A stretch of 38,024 nt of DNA from an uncultured Chroococcidiopsis sp. GTDB taxonomy: Bacteria > Cyanobacteriota > Cyanobacteriia > Cyanobacteriales > Chroococcidiopsidaceae. The stretch is taken from positions 1 through 38,024 of the forward strand of contig CAXTYC010000041.1 of NCBI GenBank assembly GCA_964248365.1, written 5' to 3'. Below the pieces are notes generated by a model. That model saw only the letters and a list, made by a program, of their open reading frames with translations, was not told the origin of the DNA and did no database searches. Below, piece by piece: positions 25,732 through 36,084 of this stretch (positions are counted from its first letter, which is position 1; each line of letters starts with the position of its first letter). Made by a program: the position numbers and the translations under genes.

Positions 25732-26672
25732 TATAGAACCTATTTGACATCTAACAATAGGCTGCAAGTCTCTTGACCATCAGCCTAATAAAACAAAGAT
25801 TAACCTTGGCAGTCGCATTAGCGAGAGTTCTCTCAAAGTTTTTAACAAGAATTTTGCATCTCTCCATCCAAGCATTTGACCGCTCAATCACCCACCGCGC
25901 TATGACTGGAACAAACCCAAGTTTTCCTTGTACCTTCTTTTCAAATTTCGATAGTTTAGTCGAAAGTTCAAACATAGTTTTCGTCATGATCTGGGGATAA
26001 ACCTTTTCTAACTCCTGTCTGAGATATTGAGGGTGATAGCCGCGATCTAGGAGGATAGTGATCTTGGGAATATTAACGGGTTTTGACTGGAAATAATCGA
26101 TGTTTTTAGTTAGCATCTCTAACAGACCCCCATCATCAGATACATTTGCTTTAGTGCAGTGAGTAAAGAAGGGGAATCCGAGCGTATCAACGGCTAGATG
26201 CCTCTTAATCCCATTCGTCGATTTGTAGAAACAATAACCTTTAGAGTTCACACTAGCATTACAAGTATTTTTAACCGCTTGGGAGTCGATAATTATCAAC
26301 CTAGTCCACTTAGCTTTTTTTTAACCTGCTCACGCACTTGAGAATGTAAAACTCTCATCAGTTCTTCTACCACACCAACAGATCGCCACTGCTTGTAATG
26401 CTAATAGACGGCCGAGTACGCAGGCAAGTCCTTGGGTAAATCTTGCCAATTGCAGCCATTCTTAAGTTGATAAAAGATGCCATCTAAGAGTTCTCTTTTT
26501 GTCCAGTTGGAGGGTCTGGTCTGTTTCTTGGTCGGCAATATCTGCGGCAGTATAGTCTCCAGAATTTCCCACTCTTCGTCTGTTAGGCTGCTAGAGTATG
26601 GCATGACTACTGAATATAACTGCTGCCGTAACTGTACTTCAACACAGTAAAAGATGTCAAATGGGTTTTATA
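25732..26672 (-). mobile_element. IS5-family insertion sequence with a disrupted two-frame transposase (26604 to 25751)
   Basis: Inverted repeats TATAGAACCTATTTGACATCT / AGATGTCAAATGGGTTTTATA. Motifs YSSSLTDEEW, IIDSQAVK and RWVIERSNAW. In-frame TAG at 26401-26403 in place of Trp (VY*HYKQWR). Confidence 0.9.
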
Positions 26673-26861
26673 GAATGTAGGGGATTTCTAGTTAGAGAAG
26701 ATAGCAACTGTGGTTGGAGCTAATGCACTTTTTCTACCGCAGATGCTACCTCTAAATGGACTAGTGCAGCCTGGTAGAAATAACTTCTGTGTTTATTCAG
26801 TTATGAGTAACCCTCAAATTTCCACTTGACTACAATGAAGCCTAAAAATAATGGCAGGCTT

Positions 26862-27650
26862 TAAGAGCTGATTCGTAAAGAAAATCTAAAGAGCATCGAA
26901 TCTGGCTAGGATCAAGTTATAGGCTAAATTCAGTCTAATTGTGTTGCTGCCGATGAGCCGTCTACCCACAATTGAAAACCAAGAGCGCCAACCCTACCCA
27001 AGTGATTTAAGTGATGCCGAATGGGTCATTTTGAAGCCCCTGCTACCTGCACCAAAGGGTTTTGGACATCCTGTGGAAGTGGACTTGCGAGAAATTCTCA
27101 ACGGAATTTTTTATGTGCAACCTTGGGATGTCAGTGGGAAATGCTGCCCCATGACCTGCCTCCCAACACCACCGTGTATGGCTACTTTCAGAAATGGCAA
27201 CGTAGAGGCATCTGGCAGGTTCTTCACGATCAGGTGCGTCATCAACTGCGAATTGAGCGCACGGGCAAGATGAACAATCAAGCGTAGACAAGAGCCGATT
27301 CTCAATCAGTCAAGACAACGGAAAAAAGGGGGAGGTATACGGTTTCGATGGTGGCAAGAAGGTTAAAGGGCGTAAGCGCTATATCGTCGTAGATTCTCAA
27401 GGCTTGTTACTCGGTGTTTTAGTTACCCAAGCCATTAGACGTTTCCATAAATTAAAGTTCCAGCCCTAATAACAATTCGCGTAACGCTCTCGCATCACAG
27501 ATCACCTAAGAGGGCTGGAACCTTAATTTTTGGAGAAATCTAATGCCTCAGAACGACTAGGGGCAGTTGTAGTGCTGCATGAAGTTGTGGAGCAATTGTC
27601 CAAGTTGAAAGTGGTTTGGGTAGACTCTGGTTATTCGCGAGAAAACTTTA
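26862..27650 (+). mobile_element. Truncated IS5-family element with a transposase pseudogene
   Basis: YPSDLSDAEW..LREILNGIFY, WEMLPHDLP, DSQSVKTTEK, GFDGGKKVKGRKR..VDSQGLL, VWVDSGY. Frameshifted, interrupted by a hairpin unit at 27434 and cut at 27650 by an IS630 end. Left boundary approximate. Confidence 0.85.
27434..27544. mobile_element. Hairpin unit (MITE-like) inserted in the IS5 transposase
   Basis: 34-bp imperfect inverted repeats ATTAGACGTTTCCATAAATTAAAGTTCCAGCCCT / AGGGCTGGAACCTTAATTTTTGGAGAAATCTAAT. Removing 105-108 bp rejoins VTQA|NASERLG. Confidence 0.85.
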
Positions 27651-28156
27651 TACCAATTCTCTAAAAAGTGGCTACAGATGATAAAATAAGATTAAATTAG
27701 ACAATCAGATTTAAAATGGCTGGGACATATCACCTAGAAATCAAAGAGACTGTAGAAGAACTCAAGGAATTACTCACAAGACAAAAAACTGTATATTCTA
27801 AACAAAGAGTGCAGCTATTGTATCCCCTTAAAACAGGGCATAGTCAAACGATTTCTCGCAAGCGCACAAATTATAGGTCGTAACCGAGTCACCTGGCACA
27901 AGTGGATTAGACAGTATAAAGCTTTTGGAATTGAAGGACTATTAGAAAAAAAATATTCGCTCTTGTTGACCAAGAGTAATTCCCAGGTGGGCAGAAAAAG
28001 CACTCGAGAAAAGATTACACGAAGCACAAGGATTTAATGGTTATCAAGAAATTGTCAGGCAGGAACAAAACTTGCTCGTAAATACTTGCTACAAGACAGT
28101 TCACAAGCTCGTTTATGAACGTTTGGAATCCCAGCCGAAAGTACCACGTCCCCAAA
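27651..28156 (+). mobile_element. IS630-family element, left end and HTH ORF remnant
   Basis: Left end TACCAATTCTCTAAAAAGTGGCTACAGAT. ATG 27716 gives MAGTYHLEIKETVEELKELL..., frameshifted, breaking off after KVPRPQ. Homologous to ORF 33034-33534. Confidence 0.8.
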
Positions 28157-30292
28157 AGATTTCTCCAAAAATTAAAGCAACGACCGAATAACATGAACGC
28201 GTAACGCGAAAGCACAAAGGACAACCCAAGAGGGTAACAACTGAGGCAGAAAAATAAAGTCTTAGAATATTGCCTTAAAAAAATACAGCCCAGGAATGTG
28301 GCGATAAAAAATAATGGCAACCCGCCGTTCTCCCCGAATGCATTCGGGGATCTGGCGGACAGCGATGCCTAATACAACACAAACAACCCGTGATGCCGAC
28401 AAATTCCCTCTTGAGGGAAGCCATTATTTTTCTAGCCTTGCCTCCCATGCCCTCTTTGAGTGGGAGGCGAAGGAACCTGAAATTTTAGGTCAGGCAAATG
28501 TTCGTTATCTGTTTGCCCCCGTGAGTTACGAGGGGTGTCTGAAGCCTGACCTAAAATTTTTGCGCTCCTTTCCAGGTCTGTTGTGAACAATGGACTATCT
28601 ATTGGGTTTAAGGGCTGGGAGAATAGTTTAAGAAAATTGGGCAATCGGGCGCAAAAAGGTGCAATTGATTTATCAACAAGTACGATTACTTGAAAATAAA
28701 AGCACCTTTTTGCCCACCATCAGAATTCGTGACCGACTTATCCAAAAAATAGGGCAGGCTTAATAACCCCACGAGTAAACAAGGGGGCTTCACAACTATC
28801 GAACGAAGCCTGCCCTATTTTTAAAGAAGGAATTGGTGAGGAGCCGAAACGACAGTCGCATTTGAGGATTGCCCAATTTTCTATAGGTTCAAGGTAACGG
28901 CTAGCTGTATTTTTTGGCGAGGCAACCGCGTGAAAAATAGTGGGAAACCGATGTAAACCTTAAAAAATAGAGACAGCCGCTGTGTTTAGAGTTATCTGTT
29001 GGTATTACGAGGTATCGTAGTTGAAGGCTGTCTCTATTTTTTATGTCGTTTTTTCCTGGTTGGGAGGCACACCGCATGAAAAATAAGGCAGGAGAGGCTC
29101 AGCTTGAAAAATTGGCGGAACCAAATTTATCGTTATCTGTCGGGAATAACCAGATCTCGTGTTGTGTTGAAGGTTCCGCCAATTTTTTGCCGCCACGTCC
29201 CTTGGGCTTTTTGAGTAATCTGTGGTGCATAGTGGCTTATCTGTTTTGTATCAAGCCCGAAGGTTTTTTGGGAGGTAAAGCTTGAGAAAAAGTTGGCCGC
29301 AAATCTATCGTTATCTGTCGGTCGTGACGAGTTAATGGTGTTGTTTGAAGCAGGCAACTTTTTCTTGTCGCAGTGTTCACTCGTCGCCATTACATTTGGC
29401 GCAAAAAATAAAAATTTGACCGTGTTTTAAAGTTTATTCGTTGGTAGTGAGAGAGCTGGATGTGACGGTCACGCATCTCCGGAAAAAATGGGGCAGGCAA
29501 ATTTATCGTTGTCTATGGGTAGTAACGAATTGTCGTGTTGTGTTTACGCAGCTCCCATTTTTCTAGGTTCACCCTCGTCAAATTTTTATTTTCAAGCCTG
29601 ACTTATATTCCCGCCCTCTTTAAGTGATGTGTGGCGCATAGTGGGTGAAGGATTTGGTTTAAGGGTTGGGAGGCATGGCTTGGAAAAAAGGGGAACACGA
29701 CCTACCTTAAAAAAATGAGACATGAAATGTTGCCTGAAAAAATATGTCGGTCCGTGTATTAGGTTATCTGTTGGTATTACGGGGGATTTGTGTTGACGGA
29801 CCGACATATTTTTTGGCTAAGGCTCTCCTGCCTTCTATGGAGGTTATCTGTTGGTGCGGGAGTCGATGCCAAAAAATATGTCAGGCTTTTTGTCTTGTCG
29901 AAAGGTATATATGGTTATTGCGTGTTGTGATGAAGCCTGACTTATTTTTTTTAAGGCAATATTCCAAGAGGGATCTTTTAAACAAGGCACGGGAGGTAAA
30001 AGCTAGAAAAATAAGTCAGGCTTTTTGAGTGGTTGGTAATGTATAGAATATTGCCTTAAAAATAAGGCGAACCCTCTTTGAGTTATCGTGTTGACATCAT
30101 GGTTATTAGTGTTGTTATTAGGGCTGAAGCCTTATTTTTGGCATCGGCTCCCATATTCGGGGATCTGTGTTGTTATAAGCCTGACTTATTTTTTGTCGCG
30201 TTCCTTCCAAGTCTCATTTTTTTATGTCGGTAAATCCTGGGAAGGCTCTTTTGGGTTATTTGTGTTGCTGGGCGTGTTATCTGTTGGGTTTA
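28157..30292. repeat. Nested array of about 16 A-tract/T-tract hairpin units
   Basis: Perfect or near-perfect arm pairs include 28480-495/28544-559, 28631-646/28867-882, 28745-761/28806-822, 28961-978/29026-043, 29107-122/29172-187, 29737-755/29796-814, 29871-888/29933-950, 30007-023/30177-193 and 29708-721/30211-224. Confidence 0.9.
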
Positions 30293-30765
30293 GAGGGCAT
30301 TTCTAAATTAATCGTTAAGTTTTTTCTTCCAGTTCACCTAACCGTTGCAACATCAACCGAATCATTGCCCCTTGGATTATTGCCTCACTCACTTCTGGTA
30401 AAAGTTCATAATCCTTGCTTAAACGTCGGTTTTGATTAAGCCAGCCAAAGGTTCGTTCCACAACCCATCGCTGGGGTAAAATCACAAACCCTGATTCAGA
30501 GCGCTTAACCACTTCAACTTTTGCGCCACACAACTGCTCGACAACTCGTGCGAAGTTCTCTTTTTGATCACCTTGATCCACCCACAGCAGTTGCAATGCC
30601 TTGGCTTGTTGTGCATCTAAATCGTGTACCGCAATCACCCCACCTGGTTGCTCTGAGCAGTTGGCATTGAGGACGACTACCGCCATCAGCAACCCCAAGG
30701 TATCGACCAAGAGAAACCGCAAGCGTCCTTTGACTAACTTGCCACCGTCGAAGCCATAGACCTCC

Positions 30766-30811
30766 ACGCCAGTTGCTTCAAGTCGGCACCGCCGCCCAAC
30801 GCACTGGCTCC
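30766..30811. repeat. Small dispersed repeat-like insertion at the IS5 frameshift site
   Basis: GCCAGTTGCTTCAAGTCGGCACCGCCGCCCAACGCACTGGC (GCCAG/CTGGC ends) splits the GAAAAAAGGG|GGAGGT motif that is intact in the IS5 copy at 27321. Confidence 0.7.
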
Positions 30812-31084
30812 CTTTTTTTCCGTCGTTTTGACCGACTGACTATCGATACTGCCTGCAGCGAAAGAATGCTTGCCCACTTGGCAGGGTAACTCTCGTCGCA
30901 AAGAGTCATGAATCTGTTGCCAAATGCCTTTTCGCTGCCACCGGCGAAAGTATTTGTAGACTGTTTGCCAGGCGGGTAAATCTTTTGGCAAGTCGCTCCA
31001 AATGCAACCATTGTGTATTTGGTAGAAGATCGCATTGAGAATTTCTGTGTGATCTACTTGGCGCTTGCGTCCCCTCGCTTTAGG

Positions 31085-31928
31085 GGTAGTGCAATTTTGT
31101 AAAGGATAGAGGAAAATAGCCAGGAGTTGAGTTTTTCCCCGAATGCTCAGGTATGAAACCCTATTTGATTTGTCCAACTTGCGGTTCCGATGACATCATG
31201 AAAAACGGTACAACTCGTCGGGGCAAACAAAACTACAAATGCCGTGATTGCGGTCGTCAGTTTGTCGAAAACCCGCAGTGGAGACCGATTCCTCCTGACA
31301 GCAAAGCGATGATAGACCGCTTGTTGCTAGAGCGAGTTCCTTTATCAGGCATTGCCCGTGTAATGCAGGTATCTGAGGACTGGTTGCAAGGATACGTCAA
31401 CCGTTGCTATGAGACAGTGCCACATAAGGTGCAGGTGCAACCCAAAAACAAAGTCCGCTTGGAAGTGCAGATGGACGAGTTGTGGTCGTTTGTGGACGAC
31501 AAAGGCAACAAGCAGTGGGTATGGCTGGCAATTGATGTGGCAACTCGTGAGATCGTTGGGTGCTACATCGGCGACCGTTCTAGAAATTGTGCTGTTGCTT
31601 TGTGGGAATCGATGCGCCTGAGTGTATCGACAGTGCGCGGTCATCTACACCGATTACTGGGAGGCTTATGCGACGGCACTGCCACGTCAACGTCACCGAG
31701 CTGTAGGTAAGGAAAGTGGATTGACCACCTACATTGAACGGTTGAATAACACACTCAGGCAACGGGTGTCACGCTTAGTGAGAAAAACATTGTCCTTCTC
31801 CAAGAAGTTGGATAATCACATCGGTGCGATCTGGAATTTTATTCATTACTACAATCAGAGGATTCAAGCGCAGCGAGCTAGTTGTTAAGAAGATTATTTT
31901 TCTCCATCCTTTACAAAATACCACTACC
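31085..31928 (+). mobile_element. IS1-family insertion sequence (InsA/InsB, ORFs 31153-31710 and 31622-31888)
   Basis: Inverted repeats GGTAGTGCAATTTTGTAAAGGAT / ATCCTTTACAAAATACCACTACC. Motifs CPTCGS..KNG..GKQNYKCRDCGRQF, QMDELWSFV, YTDYW and IERLNNTLRQR. Frameshift near 31615. Confidence 0.92.
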
Positions 31929-32079
31929 CAACTGTTTTTCTGTGCTCACCTACTTAAGCTTTTATTTAGAAATGCGCTCTCATTGACTGTTTTCAAATAT
32001 TCCTCAATCTAGTTGCTCAACATTTTGCTGATTCCGGATTAATTATTCAACTTGACAACGGCGCATTTCATTAAATTGA

Positions 32080-32350
32080 CTCCTGAAAAATTAAGCCAGC
32101 CAAAGAAGGCTTGAAAAAATAAGTTTGACTGTCAACAAAGATCTCTCATTCACAACCAGTCAACTCAATACACGGTCAAACTTATTTTTTTGCGCCAAAT
32201 GTAATTTTGAAACCCCACGATTAATCATGGGGAGCAACAGATTTACATTTGACGCAAAAAATAAAAATTTTACCGTGTTTTAAAGTTTATTCGTTGGTAG
32301 TGAGAGAGCTGAATGTGACGGTAAAATTTTTATTTTCAAGCCTGACTTTA
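32080..32350. repeat. Second cluster of hairpin units (two in opposite orientation inside an outer pair that closes at 33603-33618)
   Basis: Arm pairs 32114-132/32172-190 and 32256-276/32318-336. Outer AAAAATTAAGCCAGCC (32086-101) pairs with GGCTGGCTTAATTTTT (33603-618) across the IS630. Confidence 0.85.
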
Positions 32351-32355
32351 ACTCA

Positions 32356-33595
32356 TACCAATTCACGAAATGCCTGATACAAATAAAGCTTCCAGAATAA
32401 AATCCCATCCAGTGATAGAAGCGACAACTCAATCAGTTAGCTTGTCGAGAATTTGAGCCAGAGCTGCTCTCAATTCATCTAAAGTCTCAAATGATTGCCA
32501 CCTCAGGTATTTCTTCATTTCTTTCCACAATCTTTCAATCGGATTGACTTGGGGAGAATGGGCAGCTTGAAACAGTAAAATGACGGTTTCGGGAACTTGT
32601 AATAACTCACAGCTATGAAATCTGCCTTGGTCTAACTGAATAATATGTATATCATCAGGATAAGCTTGTACAAACTGTGCCAAAAACTGCTCAAAACAAA
32701 CAGTATCCAGGTGAGAATACTCAAAAAAAAGTGGTCTCCTGTCAGCGGTCCACAATTCCATACAGATAAAATGCCTTGGGTGTCCATTGTACTTGTCCGA
32801 CTGGTTTAACTCCTTTTAGTGTTAATAACGTTTCCTCAAAATAATGAAACAGCCTTCAAGTGCGAATACCTGCTGTGTACGAGAGATTTTTAAATAAGGC
32901 TGTTTCATTATTTTTAGGATTCCATATAACTTTCTGCCGGTAATCGTCTTCAGACCAAAGCGACTTTCATCTTCACACCAGTAAGGAACATTTTTGTCTT
33001 GACTTGGTGTGACTAAGTACTCCAAAACGACATCTAGCAATTGAGGCAGTTTTTTTTAAAATTTTCTTGTGCTTGGGGTGATTGTTTGATGCTTTGCGGA
33101 CGTGGCACTTTCAACCCCGCTTTAAGTAGGTAATGTACTGTGTCATGTACCACTTTATAGGACCCATCAATTCCTTCCGAAGCTTTTAACCAAGTTTGTA
33201 CTTCTCCATAACTTTCAAATCCCTCTGGTTGTGCTAGTTCCAACCGCCGCCGTTCTCTGACTTCTAAAGGAATAATTTTTGGTCTTTCTGGACGAGGAGG
33301 CACATCTAATAACCTATCTATTCCACCTGCTCTGTATTGCCGTAGCCACCGTTGTACTGTGACTCGACTTTTTCCCAGTACTACTGCTAAATGCTGTACT
33401 GTCTCTACTTGTTGAGTTTTTAGTAAATACAATGCTTGAATACGCACCAACGCAAATGCTTCTTTTTGTTGCTTTAACAACTGTTTTAACTCGGATGCTG
33501 TCTCTGCTATATTGATTTTAACTACGCCTGTCATCGGGAAAAATAGTTCATAGCTGTTTTTCTACTATTTGTATCATATACAAAGTGAATTGGTA
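32356..33595 (-). mobile_element. IS630-family insertion sequence, both ends present, transposase disrupted
   Basis: TA-flanked inverted repeats TACCAATTCAC..TGATACAAATA at both ends. HTH ORF 33034-33534 and DDE pieces (DESRFG, QLDQGRFH, SPQVNPIERLW). Confidence 0.92.
32826..32929. mobile_element. Hairpin unit inserted in the IS630 transposase
   Basis: 19-bp perfect arms AAAATAATGAAACAGCCTT (32838-856) / AAGGCTGTTTCATTATTTT (32896-914). Removing 104 bp (TAA duplicated) restores GRKLTLKGVKP. Confidence 0.88.
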
Positions 33596-33630
33596 TCAGA
33601 AAGGCTGGCTTAATTTTTTTAGGAAACATC

Positions 33631-33736: not shown

Positions 33737-34984
33737 CAGTGACACGATTTCTGATAATGCCAAAATACTTAACTAGACAGAATGCTTTCCATCCAATGTA
33801 TGTCACTTATTTCTTGACACATACAGGCTTGAAGAAGCGCAAAGTTTATCTAGTAGTTTATTACCCCATACTTTAGGAATATCTACTAGGTGCAAAATCA
33901 AATAAGCTATTCCCTGTAGCATAAATTTGTATAGTAATACCATTGACATTTTTTGTAATGAGATGGTCAAGTTTTAGATGCATCTTTAGAAACTTCCATA
34001 GCAACTCGATTCCCCACGGCATCGATAAATTTCCAGAATTTCTTCATCAGTAATAACTCCTTCTCCTGTTCGAGGTAAATTTGTCACTAATCGATACTCT
34101 GCCTTCGTTTCCAAATCACAGAATTGGATAACTCGGTATAACCCCCGCTTTTGACGCATTTGGCGAAAAGAAAATAAGACAACCTTTAAACCACACAAAC
34201 TATCCGTTATGCACCACCTACCCATTAAAGAAGGTTGTCTTATTTTCTAAGCCTTACCCCCGCGACCAGTCCCTACCTGCGTTAATTCAGATTCTTCATG
34301 AAATTATAGCTTGTATTTATTCCCAATTCGGAGAACAAAATACTTATCTGCTTCCACTGTATTTTGTAAAAACTTTAGACCAGCAAATCCTCTATCCATC
34401 ACCCCAACATCATTTTCTGGCAGGGCATTCATCATCTTTTGACCATATTTATAATCATGGTTTAACCCAAAAATAATGAAATTCTCCTCAGTAACACCAG
34501 TGTTTAAGTGCAAAGAACTAAAAAGTTTGAAGGAATGATATCCCAAACTCCACAACAATTTACCTGTTAAAGAGATTGTGGTTGAATCTATCGGACAATA
34601 GCATATTTATCATTAAGTCTCTTTCGAGAAACTAGCCTAGATAGTTGGCGGTAAATTTGTTGAAATATCTGCTGGCTCCGATGAGAGCTAGCTTTAGAGA
34701 AAGTAGAGATATTTACAGAAAAGCCTGTGTTGTTTAATCGCGCGAAATTTATCTCTCATACTTGTTAAGCTTTTATCCATTGCATAGCTTAACCAACACT
34801 AGACAAACAAGCGGGTGTTCAAAACTGGATAATCGTTTTTAGGTAGGGGCGCTAGAACCTTTACAGGCAATCTTGGGAAACGAACTTATAATCACAAGCT
34901 ATTACTATTATTCTAAAATCCGCCCAAGTTTATCAGATTTTGGGTTGATTTTTTATGTGTTTTTTTTAACATTCAACACTTCTG
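33737..34984 (-). mobile_element. IS4-family element with a transposase pseudogene
   Basis: Minus strand reads LPKNDYPVLNTRLF, PIDSTTISLTGKLLW, GVMDRGFAG and YRLVTNLP..IYR, with several frameshifts and stops. One end is CAGAAGTGTTGAATGTTAA (ending 34984). The other end is not recognisable. Confidence 0.8.
34157..34264. mobile_element. Hairpin unit inserted in the IS4 transposase
   Basis: 18-bp perfect arms AGAAAATAAGACAACCTT (34169-186) / AAGGTTGTCTTATTTTCT (34231-248). Removing 108 bp rejoins QVGTG|RQKRGLYRV. Confidence 0.88.
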
Positions 34985-35159
34985 GAAAATTAACTAAACA
35001 AATTATTGCATCTATTGCTGGAAGGCAATATATTTTAGAGGCTTTATCTGTTGCCGCCTTTTAGAGAATTGGTATTATCCAATCCAATCATCGCATCAAT
35101 TACTCAACGACAATATATCCTGCTTGCTTTATCTGTTGCCCTATTTTAGAGAATTGGTA
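34985..35159 (+). mobile_element. Two tandem IS630 right ends with C-terminal coding remnants
   Basis: IIASIAGRQYILEALSVAAF* and IIASITQRQYILLALSVALF*, each followed by TTTTAGAGAATTGGTA (ends 35074 and 35159), complementary to the left end at 27651. Confidence 0.8.
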
Positions 35160-35722
35160 TAACTCAATTACCTCAACAGATAACGTAACAATTGCCTTCC
35201 CCAATTTTTCGAGCCTTGCCTCCTACGGGTTCAAACCAAACAGATAACTCAATAACACCGTGCCGTCAACTCAAAAAACCCACCCTCTTTTTCCAGGTCC
35301 TAGCCTCGCAGAGCTTCATACCCCGTCCTTCACCCACTATGCACCACAGACTACTCAAAAAAGCTCTCCCATATTTTTTAGGCAATTTTCACTCGTCTCA
35401 TTTTTTTAGAGTTACATCGTGTTCCCCTATTTTTTGCAACGCCCAGTTGTACCCTCTTAAAAAGATCCACGTCACCAACTCGAAAACCCTAATACAGGGT
35501 AATACCATGAGCATAAAAATAAATCCTGCCTGCGTATTGGGTATATTGGTTGTGAGCGGAGGATCTTGAAAAGATGGCAGGATTTATTTTTAAAGTCTCA
35601 TCTTTTGGCTGGCATTATTTTTCACAAGATAGCCTCCCTTGGCTTTAAACCTTTGTAGATTATTCCGCAGTGCGACACAGATATTTTTAGAAGCCTGCCA
35701 TTATTTTTCTTCTTCTTCCCTC
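35160..35722. repeat. Third cluster of hairpin-family sequence (mostly right arms, one complete unit)
   Basis: Complete pair 35514-530/35576-592. 35326-35435 is an inverted homolog of about 29617-29746. AACAGATAAC loop motifs present. Confidence 0.8.
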
Positions 35723-35725
35723 AAA

Positions 35726-36084
35726 AAGACCACAACAGTGGTGCAGTGTTGTCATATGTGTTAGCGCCCCATGACGATGAAGCGTTTGTGAAGTTGAAAG
35801 CCCTGTTAGAGGCGTTTGGGATTACCCATTTCTACACTGATGGCTGGGGAGCTTATGAACGCCATCTTGACGTTGATGTTCATACCGTTGGGAAACGCAA
35901 TACCCAGAAGATTGAACGAAAGCATTTAACAAGCGTTGCGGACTCGAATTAAACGATTAGCTCGTAAAACGATTTGCTTTTCGCGCATCCGAATATATGC
36001 ACGATGTTGTCATCGGATTGTTTATCAATCGGTACGAATTTGGCTTAGCCATTTAGAACCAAACAACAACTCTATAACACTACC
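35726..36084 (+). mobile_element. IS1-family 3' fragment (InsB remnant and right inverted repeat)
   Basis: DHNSGAVLSYVL..FYTDGWGAYERH..TQKIERKHLT..RTRIKRLARKTICFS. Ends in CACTACC. Confidence 0.85.

Follow-up and report, generated by a model that had tools for sequence, protein, structure and literature searches.

The REPIN/RAYT repeats are hairpin-forming mobile sequences of ~100 bp that cluster, and insertion sequences of the ISAzo13 family generate an AT-rich target duplication of 3 bp. The units described here are likewise clustering hairpin repeats of ~100 bp, but they have no REP sequence in common with the RAYT-like loci of their genome and, in addition, most of their sub-lineages possess a target duplication.

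MITEs are well known in cyanobacteria, as the available text of three sources shows (PMC3184786, PMC10969869, PMC3542288). In what is accessible of two of these (PMC3184786, PMC3542288), Nezha, the MaeMITEs and the MITEs of Anabaena sp. 90 are small and gene-less, with inverted ends and a stable fold, and their recent mobility is evident from empty and filled sites and from gene disruption, all of which applies equally to the present units. However, Nezha is longer (130–170 bp, versus ~105–115 bp for the units here) and is tied to ISNpu3, and the accessible text does not mention a link to ISAzo13, nested copies, inverted spacers or targets specific to sub-lineages. The ISAzo13 family is mentioned only in surveys in the available parts of PMC9208149 and PMC3526298, and no tie between this family and MITEs was found in the literature searched, which misses most subscription papers. 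The units form an undescribed family of a known kind, the MITE, with unusual variation of the target words, and it may overlap with the MITE groups of Table S4 in PMC3542288.

The nested site and its setting

The window, which denotes the whole stretch of 38,024 nucleotides analysed, comes from an uncultured Chroococcidiopsis sp. (assembly GCA_964248365.1, contig CAXTYC010000041.1). Within it, 29390–29604 consists of a copy of the 106-bp unit at 32243–32348 (102 of 106 positions identical) and a net insertion of 109 bp, with the tetramer GTCA present at both 29468–29471 and 29577–29580. Deletion of 29472–29580 in silico leaves two copies of 106 bp that differ at four positions (29399/32252, 29418/32271, 29459/32312 and 29470/32323), and pairwise alignment thus bears out the original prediction of two near-identical copies, the latter uninterrupted. 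The inverted third relative that it had noted at 32107–32204 is also real, lying on the other strand with 76% identity. A 265-nt contig from a public run (X2) matches 29429–29693 without differences and spans both junctions, although its support is limited to contigs at a depth of 2.5 and 29418 lies outside its span. As this contig crosses both junctions without differences, assembly error is unlikely to be the source of the nesting. It is nearly certain that 29390–29604 represents a MITE inside a MITE, one mobile unit having inserted into another with boundaries about as claimed, and the host and inserted units belong to two sub-lineages of one family.

The two copies were presented as a filled and an empty site. 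The uninterrupted copy does exist, but the pair are paralogues at different loci and not alleles of one site, and at the target position the ‘empty’ copy reads GTAA, not GTCA. This is a consequence of a paired change: the differences at 29418 and 29470 (29579) lie opposite each other in the stem, G-C in one copy and T-A in the other, and 32243–32348 lacks the GTCA target because it carries the derived T-A pair. The G-C pair is retained in copies on four other contigs (C66, C84, C37 and C22) and in the inverted copy at 32107–32204. The copy on C66, which is identical to the 32243 copy at 74 of 79 core bases with the spacer flipped, keeps GTCA and is the better comparator for the target.

The only sister of the inserted unit (C70:1423–1527) has a flipped spacer, shares both outer ends with it and has GTCA as its left and GCCA as its right border. 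Counted as 105 + 3 bp, this sister forms a net insertion of 108 bp that is in frame in an open reading frame of 284 aa. Since the sister shows GTCA/GCCA, and ISAzo13 and the Nostocales relatives duplicate 3 bp, a TCA duplication with one shared G fits the nested site better and is more likely than a 4-bp GTCA; the tetramers predicted stand where they were placed, whilst their reading as a 4-bp duplication does not hold up as well. The insert boundary is consequently ambiguous by 1 nt, and under the 3-bp rule the insert occupies 29472–29577 (Table 1). The interrupted frame of the sister (C70:1060–1914) has no Pfam match and stays open across the unit, which adds 36 codons.

Table 1. Positions of the nested site, its copies and further family units in the window
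Feature	Position	Strand	Remark
Host MITE, left part: outer end (TTAC type), left arm 29403–29423, G/T-rich spacer, right-arm start	29390..29471	+	
Duplicated target TCA, left copy (GTCA 29468–29471 if 4 bp)	29469..29471	+	3-bp rule
Inserted MITE of the other sub-lineage, arms 29482–29499 and 29545–29562; 106 bp under the 3-bp reading	29472..29577	+	
Duplicated target TCA, right copy	29578..29580	+	
Host MITE, remainder of right arm and outer end	29581..29604	+	
Uninterrupted paralogous host-MITE copy, derived T-A pair in both arms	32243..32348	+	
Third, more diverged copy of the host sub-lineage	32107..32204	-	
Cluster of adjacent and nested family units holding the nested site; 11 profile hits, 28362–30194	28307..30250	.	
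Related unit interrupting an IS5-family transposase pseudogene	27430..27548	.	by eye from sequence
Unit in an IS630-family transposase gene	32827..32930	+	
Further unit (core coordinates)	34171..34246	-	
Second small cluster, nested or partial units	35200..35710	.	

For the unit within the IS630-family gene, a relative without these 104 bp is present in another public run (X1), joined at 32826–32931. Much of the surrounding DNA is a dense graveyard of broken IS5, IS1 and IS630 elements (25750–28200, 30292–33600 and 34990–36080), in which an IS1 (31084–31929) lies inside the end of an IS5-family element. Other repeats in the window include a separate hairpin repeat of five copies with conserved flanks and a variable loop, present at 28630–28730, where a MITE unit adjoins or sits inside it, and elsewhere in the genome at C21:42384, C26:2960, C28:5618 and C44:14979. 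Three tandem copies of 150 bp occupy the start of the contig (6–455), and an 85-bp tandem duplication with IS630-type end sequence lies at 34989–35158.

The family in this genome and its relatives

A strict scan of the genome, a draft assembly of 102 contigs, returned 71 hairpins of the unit shape versus 0, 1 and 0 in three block shuffles; one unrelated hairpin was dropped to leave the set of 70 units used. A profile search, in which some hits were counted on both strands, gave 84 at E<1e-3 and 125 at E<0.1. The family comprises at least 70 copies in this genome, in units of ~105–115 bp. Each unit has two ends of ~35 bp, composed of a variable outer end of 10–19 bp, an A-run/T box and an inner arm of ~10 variable bp, which enclose a G/T-rich spacer of ~40 bp with shared motifs; the second arm mirrors the first and carries a different outer end. 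The inverted repeats are near perfect over the inner 17–20 bp and imperfect over the outer 10–19 bp. Dif-like and DnaA-like words occur in some spacers, but a role for them was dropped as they are not conserved. A further hairpin insert of 20–30 bp is frequent in the spacers (C3:77348, C3:271864, C29:41142, C50:21170, C74:1985 and Fischerella units) and, we presume, resembles very small mobile repeats of the SDR-like kind.

The units are short, multicopy and without a transposase, possess terminal inverted repeats and have demonstrably been mobile, as empty sites attest, all of which are characteristics of MITEs. Genes of IS1, IS630 and IS5 elements and intron RT genes are interrupted by them, the net insertion being 104–116 bp, and homologues of these genes exist without the units. 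An empty homologue was found within the genome for 7 of 109 unit clusters, and duplication lengths differ by sub-lineage. Eighteen of the 109 clusters exceed one unit in length, and many units are inserted in the arms of others. The youngest sub-lineage has 11 full-length copies of 85–100% identity, some pairs being 99–100% identical. Seven of these 11 lie on one 50-kb contig (C37, at 318, 6055, 11218, 12299, 22406, 35827 and 37050), which suggests either local hopping or a recently invaded plasmid. Individual units also show later damage: a CC-type unit has been cut to 48 bp (C50:19012–19064), with both outer ends kept and the spacer and inner arms deleted, and a larger element that bears a transposase and a 10-bp repeat, which we take to be ISAs1-like, is inserted in the spacer of a TA-type unit (C18:108976–110387). 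The genome is cyanobacterial, as shown by its 5556 HIP1 sites and by the cyanobacterial labels of its relatives.

Beyond this genome the distribution is patchy. A covariance model, whose training set included sequences of five relatives, matched 4 of 28 genomes of the family rank (71, 10, 8 and 1 matches). Under stricter filters the model (R2) matched none of 150 other genomes of the phylum; as it matched only one of five chosen Nostocales genomes, it under-detects relatives. The end pattern of the CC type was absent from 300 other genomes of the order. A scan of a genome collection gave seven hits, all in two MAG records, and only chance matches with no hairpin came from viral sequences, scanned four times with 7, 0, 8 and 9 hits, and from a metagenome scan (2 hits). 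Genomes of the same genus gave no intergenic empty sites because they are too distant, the best matches being 74–84% over genes. One TA-type sub-lineage is nearly identical in draft genomes of two genera (L065 and L066 in G005; L071, L074 and L075 in G014), which suggests horizontal transfer or binning carry-over.

The most informative relatives are found on plasmids of the Nostocales. A search of distant plasmids gave one hit for the host unit, on plasmid AP018300.1 of Fischerella sp. NIES-4106 (79% identity over 70 bp); the match is a full unit with a spacer nearly the same as that of the host. Used as a query in turn, this unit matched 5 of 400 other genomes, all of one family, whilst the 1 kb around it, which includes several unit types, matched 23 plasmids from Nostoc, Fischerella, Tolypothrix and Calothrix. 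In the 300 of 312 kb of AP018300.1 that were scanned, 19 hairpins of this general build were identified by strict rules and more by similarity. On two Nostocales plasmids, AP018300.1 (L116:3700–4700) and NZ_CP024790.1 (L125), clusters of units are located immediately upstream of parA/parB, with repeated palindromes beside them that are candidate parS sites. A role as plasmid centromere was considered for the units near parAB and dropped, as the units are scattered over the plasmid.

End architecture, target duplication and the candidate enzyme

A link to the ISAzo13 family (DDE_Tnp_ISAZ013, PF07592) is indicated by the Fischerella relatives, whose end motif is also found downstream of a PF07592 transposase. 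A set of 23 distinct ISAzo13 ends shares the order T(A/T)A, ~9–13 variable bases mostly starting GG or GA, an A-run and TAA, the last near position 16, and the unit ends follow the same plan. Scored with a matrix derived from these ends, the 140 unit ends of the present genome average -0.1 versus -3.5 for 3000 random A-run sites (p 6e-13). The resemblance is stronger in Fischerella, where 71% of 34 unit ends exceed the 95th percentile of the control under the same matrix, as against only 17% of the 140 ends here; the best-scoring ends of this genome are mostly of TTAC-, TA- and related types, with none of the CC type among the top 25. In Fischerella, one ISAzo13 end and one MITE end are nearly the same over the first ~20 bp.

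The target duplications of these relatives are also consistent with the link. One ISAzo13 element of 1313 bp, present in seven identical copies, has an exact 3-bp duplication in all seven. The flanking triplet matches in seven of eight Fischerella units, and in the eighth after a shift of 1 nt. The Nostocales kin of the host unit (Fischerella AP018300.1, Nostoc flagelliforme and Tolypothrix) have GG...CC ends and, judged by eye, matching 3-bp flanks, and a nested copy beside an uninterrupted sister was recognized by eye in N. flagelliforme. A length of 3 bp fits TCA at the nested site, although the targets of the present genome include CCW, TCA and ACC and vary in length. Despite these similarities, the units differ from ISAzo13 in possessing no transposase gene, in ends that have here drifted from GG/GA, and in duplications of 0–3 (4) bp that are often imperfect and often not AT-rich.

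Other findings speak against the link. The assembly gave no PF07592 hit, although one sub-lineage has copies that are 99–100% identical. A remnant of ISAzo13 does persist, 49 aa together with its end (C11:75827–76008; 39% identity, E 3e-5). Units and ISAzo13 seldom go together: among the genomes of the family rank, ISAzo13 is present in two of four carriers of the units and in 8 of 24 non-carriers, and it is found in two of five Nostocales carriers. This genome yielded no MITE–IS pair whose ends are identical, a search with half-end matrices, for partner arms up to 6 kb away and among the listed ORFs beside units found no autonomous element, and at the integrase, Y1, IS110, RT, resolvase and DDE_3 loci no enzyme gene was found flanked by unit ends.

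On balance, the units are probably ISAzo13-type MITEs moved in trans by a DDE transposase, with arms kept alike by template switching. An enzyme of this type would have moved the copies in the present genome, where it may since have been lost, may be unassembled or may have diverged. According to this model, the transposase would bind the A-run/TAA box ~16 bp inside each end, and the unit, cut out or copied, would be joined into the right arm of the resident copy at 29469–29471, where a staggered cut would duplicate TCA. The A-rich arms of resident units would be favoured targets, which would lead to nesting, and template switching would homogenize the arms.

Ordinary ISAzo13 behaviour does not explain the spread of target words (TA, CCW, TCA, ACC or none) or the imperfect duplications. 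Duplications of 2–3 bp are present in most sub-lineages. The young sub-lineage duplicates 2 bp, TA in 10 of 11 copies and TC in one. In CC-type units the flanking triplet matches, by eye, in 17 of 25 cases and is mismatched at the third base in eight, two of these tracing to a single event that was copied together with its IS; that third base covaries (p 0.02–0.04), in a register picked by eye, a choice that favours matches. ACC and CTC duplications are seen in one case each. The host sub-lineage duplicates only 0–1 bp (sites on C66 and C51 compared with IS630 homologues, with no extra codon), and some insertions into arms seem to have lost 1–2 bp when judged from the opposite arm, a weak guide as the arms can differ.

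One way of accommodating this spread, which we consider unlikely, is that a single ISAzo13-type transposase moves all sub-lineages whilst the bases at the unit's own ends steer the choice of a 2–3-base target and end up in the junctions. If true, such steering would explain the lineage-specific words (TA, CCW, TCA and ACC), the mismatched ‘duplications’ and the blunt or 1-bp-loss insertions; it would constitute a DDE system in which the cargo DNA, and not the protein alone, determines the target word, and the arm conversions and spacer flips would arise during transposition of the ~106-bp fragment. The clean duplications of varied triplets in ISAzo13 copies and Fischerella units speak against it. 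It is further weakened by piggyBac, for which, according to the available text of PMC7351741, a carried overhang is confirmed, yet target choice is not set by that overhang.

Conservative recombination through a circle, catalysed by a serine, tyrosine or IS110-type recombinase, is quite unlikely. Here, the apparent duplication would be a short core common to the element junction and the target, and each sub-lineage would pick targets that match its own core, in keeping with the sub-lineage-specific words at both junctions (TA, CC, CA and ACC), the mismatched third bases, the blunt cases, the end-to-end junctions of CC-type units and GTCA/GCCA at C70. However, the copy flanked by TC on both sides and the covarying third base of the CC type, subject to the same choice of register, favour true duplication, and the relatives have clean 3-bp duplications of the DDE type. 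Moreover, none of the candidate genes (15 integrase hits, three resolvase hits and one IS110 fragment) is flanked by unit ends, and no distant partner arm was found around a gene. The best integron-integrase score (TIGR02249) is 65 bits against a whole-protein cut-off of 265, as measured on partial stretches of the integrase catalytic domain from 9 of the 15 hits, and a reading of the units as integron attC sites or empty cassettes finds no support in this score.

It is very unlikely that different DDE transposases move different sub-lineages, with the TA type moved by an IS630-family enzyme and ISAzo13 acting only as an ancestor. The 2-bp TA duplication in 10 of the 11 young copies would suit such an enzyme, and the genome has 21 DDE_3 hits as opposed to none for PF07592. 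Nevertheless, a rough search for ends at 14 DDE_3 loci found no IS end like the unit ends, the one perfect match being two inserted units, and those IS630 ends that lie in the window belong to a different type.

Arm conversion and spacer inversion

The change at 29418 and 29470 had been described as compensatory. Pairing is kept whilst sequence differs, and this holds as a pattern across the family: in a 15-bp stem compared over 34 units, 91% of positions are paired and 132 changes affect both sides, a partly circular result given that the units were chosen for pairing, and the covariation score is 0.648 versus 0.166 after shuffling. Selection on a hairpin need not follow from this. Across 770 stem positions in 70 units there are 11 G-T and 11 A-C oppositions on the G/T-rich strand, i.e. 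no wobble bias. Relative to the outer ends, the spacer can face either way, the counts for the two orientations being 6 and 3 in the host sub-lineage and, in two coarser classes, 13 and 4 and 9 and 4. Two arm variants, set apart by an indel and by several positions, are combined in the young sub-lineage as X/Y (4), X/X (4), Y/Y (1) and Y/X (2), which implies that whole arm tracts convert and that unlike arms are no bar to spread; three of these arm states are found among four young copies with one common spacer variant. Given the lack of wobble bias, the two spacer orientations and the conversion of multi-base tracts, the paired change looks like the result of one arm being copied onto the other by template switching and not of selection for pairing. 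In the available text of PMC8604942, template switching between short inverted repeats homogenizes their arms and inverts the spacer, both of which are also observed in these units; there, the process is described in yeast coding DNA, and its rate in the present units looks high. Polymerase template switching between the inner arms of 17–20 bp, as opposed to hairpin selection, would account for both the matching arms and the spacer flips.

Hairpins that move as single strands by an HUH enzyme, of the REPIN/RAYT or IS200/IS605-like kind, with the stem selected for its structure, would also be expected to show well-paired stems with many double changes, and the G/T-rich spacer and five Y1 transposase hits are compatible with this. 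Such a mechanism is highly improbable given that the spacer can lie either way round between the ends, that target bases are duplicated and that the youngest copies include some with mismatched arms. In addition, both RAYT-like genes are flanked by unrelated REP-like repeats, and no unit sequence was found flanking the RAYT gene at these two loci. Each of the two genes (L027:1841–2416 and L028:2133–2685) has its own set of REP-like repeats, and the second is split. That the units are a family of structured non-coding RNAs, with the strong covariation reflecting RNA function, can be set aside as scarcely credible: no Rfam family reaches gathering level (a single chance match scored 31 bits against 117), there is no G-U excess, and the units are randomly oriented and insert into coding genes.

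ISAzo13-type MITEs whose arms are kept alike by template switching thus remain the preferred interpretation, and they caution that copying, with no structural selection, can produce ‘compensatory’ changes in DNA inverted repeats. The present family adds an undescribed, recently active group of MITEs to those of the cyanobacteria and links it to the little-studied ISAzo13 family, whilst its more than 70 copies provide a natural series for timing arm conversion and spacer inversion. If the cargo does steer the target, a set of ~106-bp substrates that differ in target word would allow direct tests of the chemistry of ISAzo13 transposases and of how they choose their targets.
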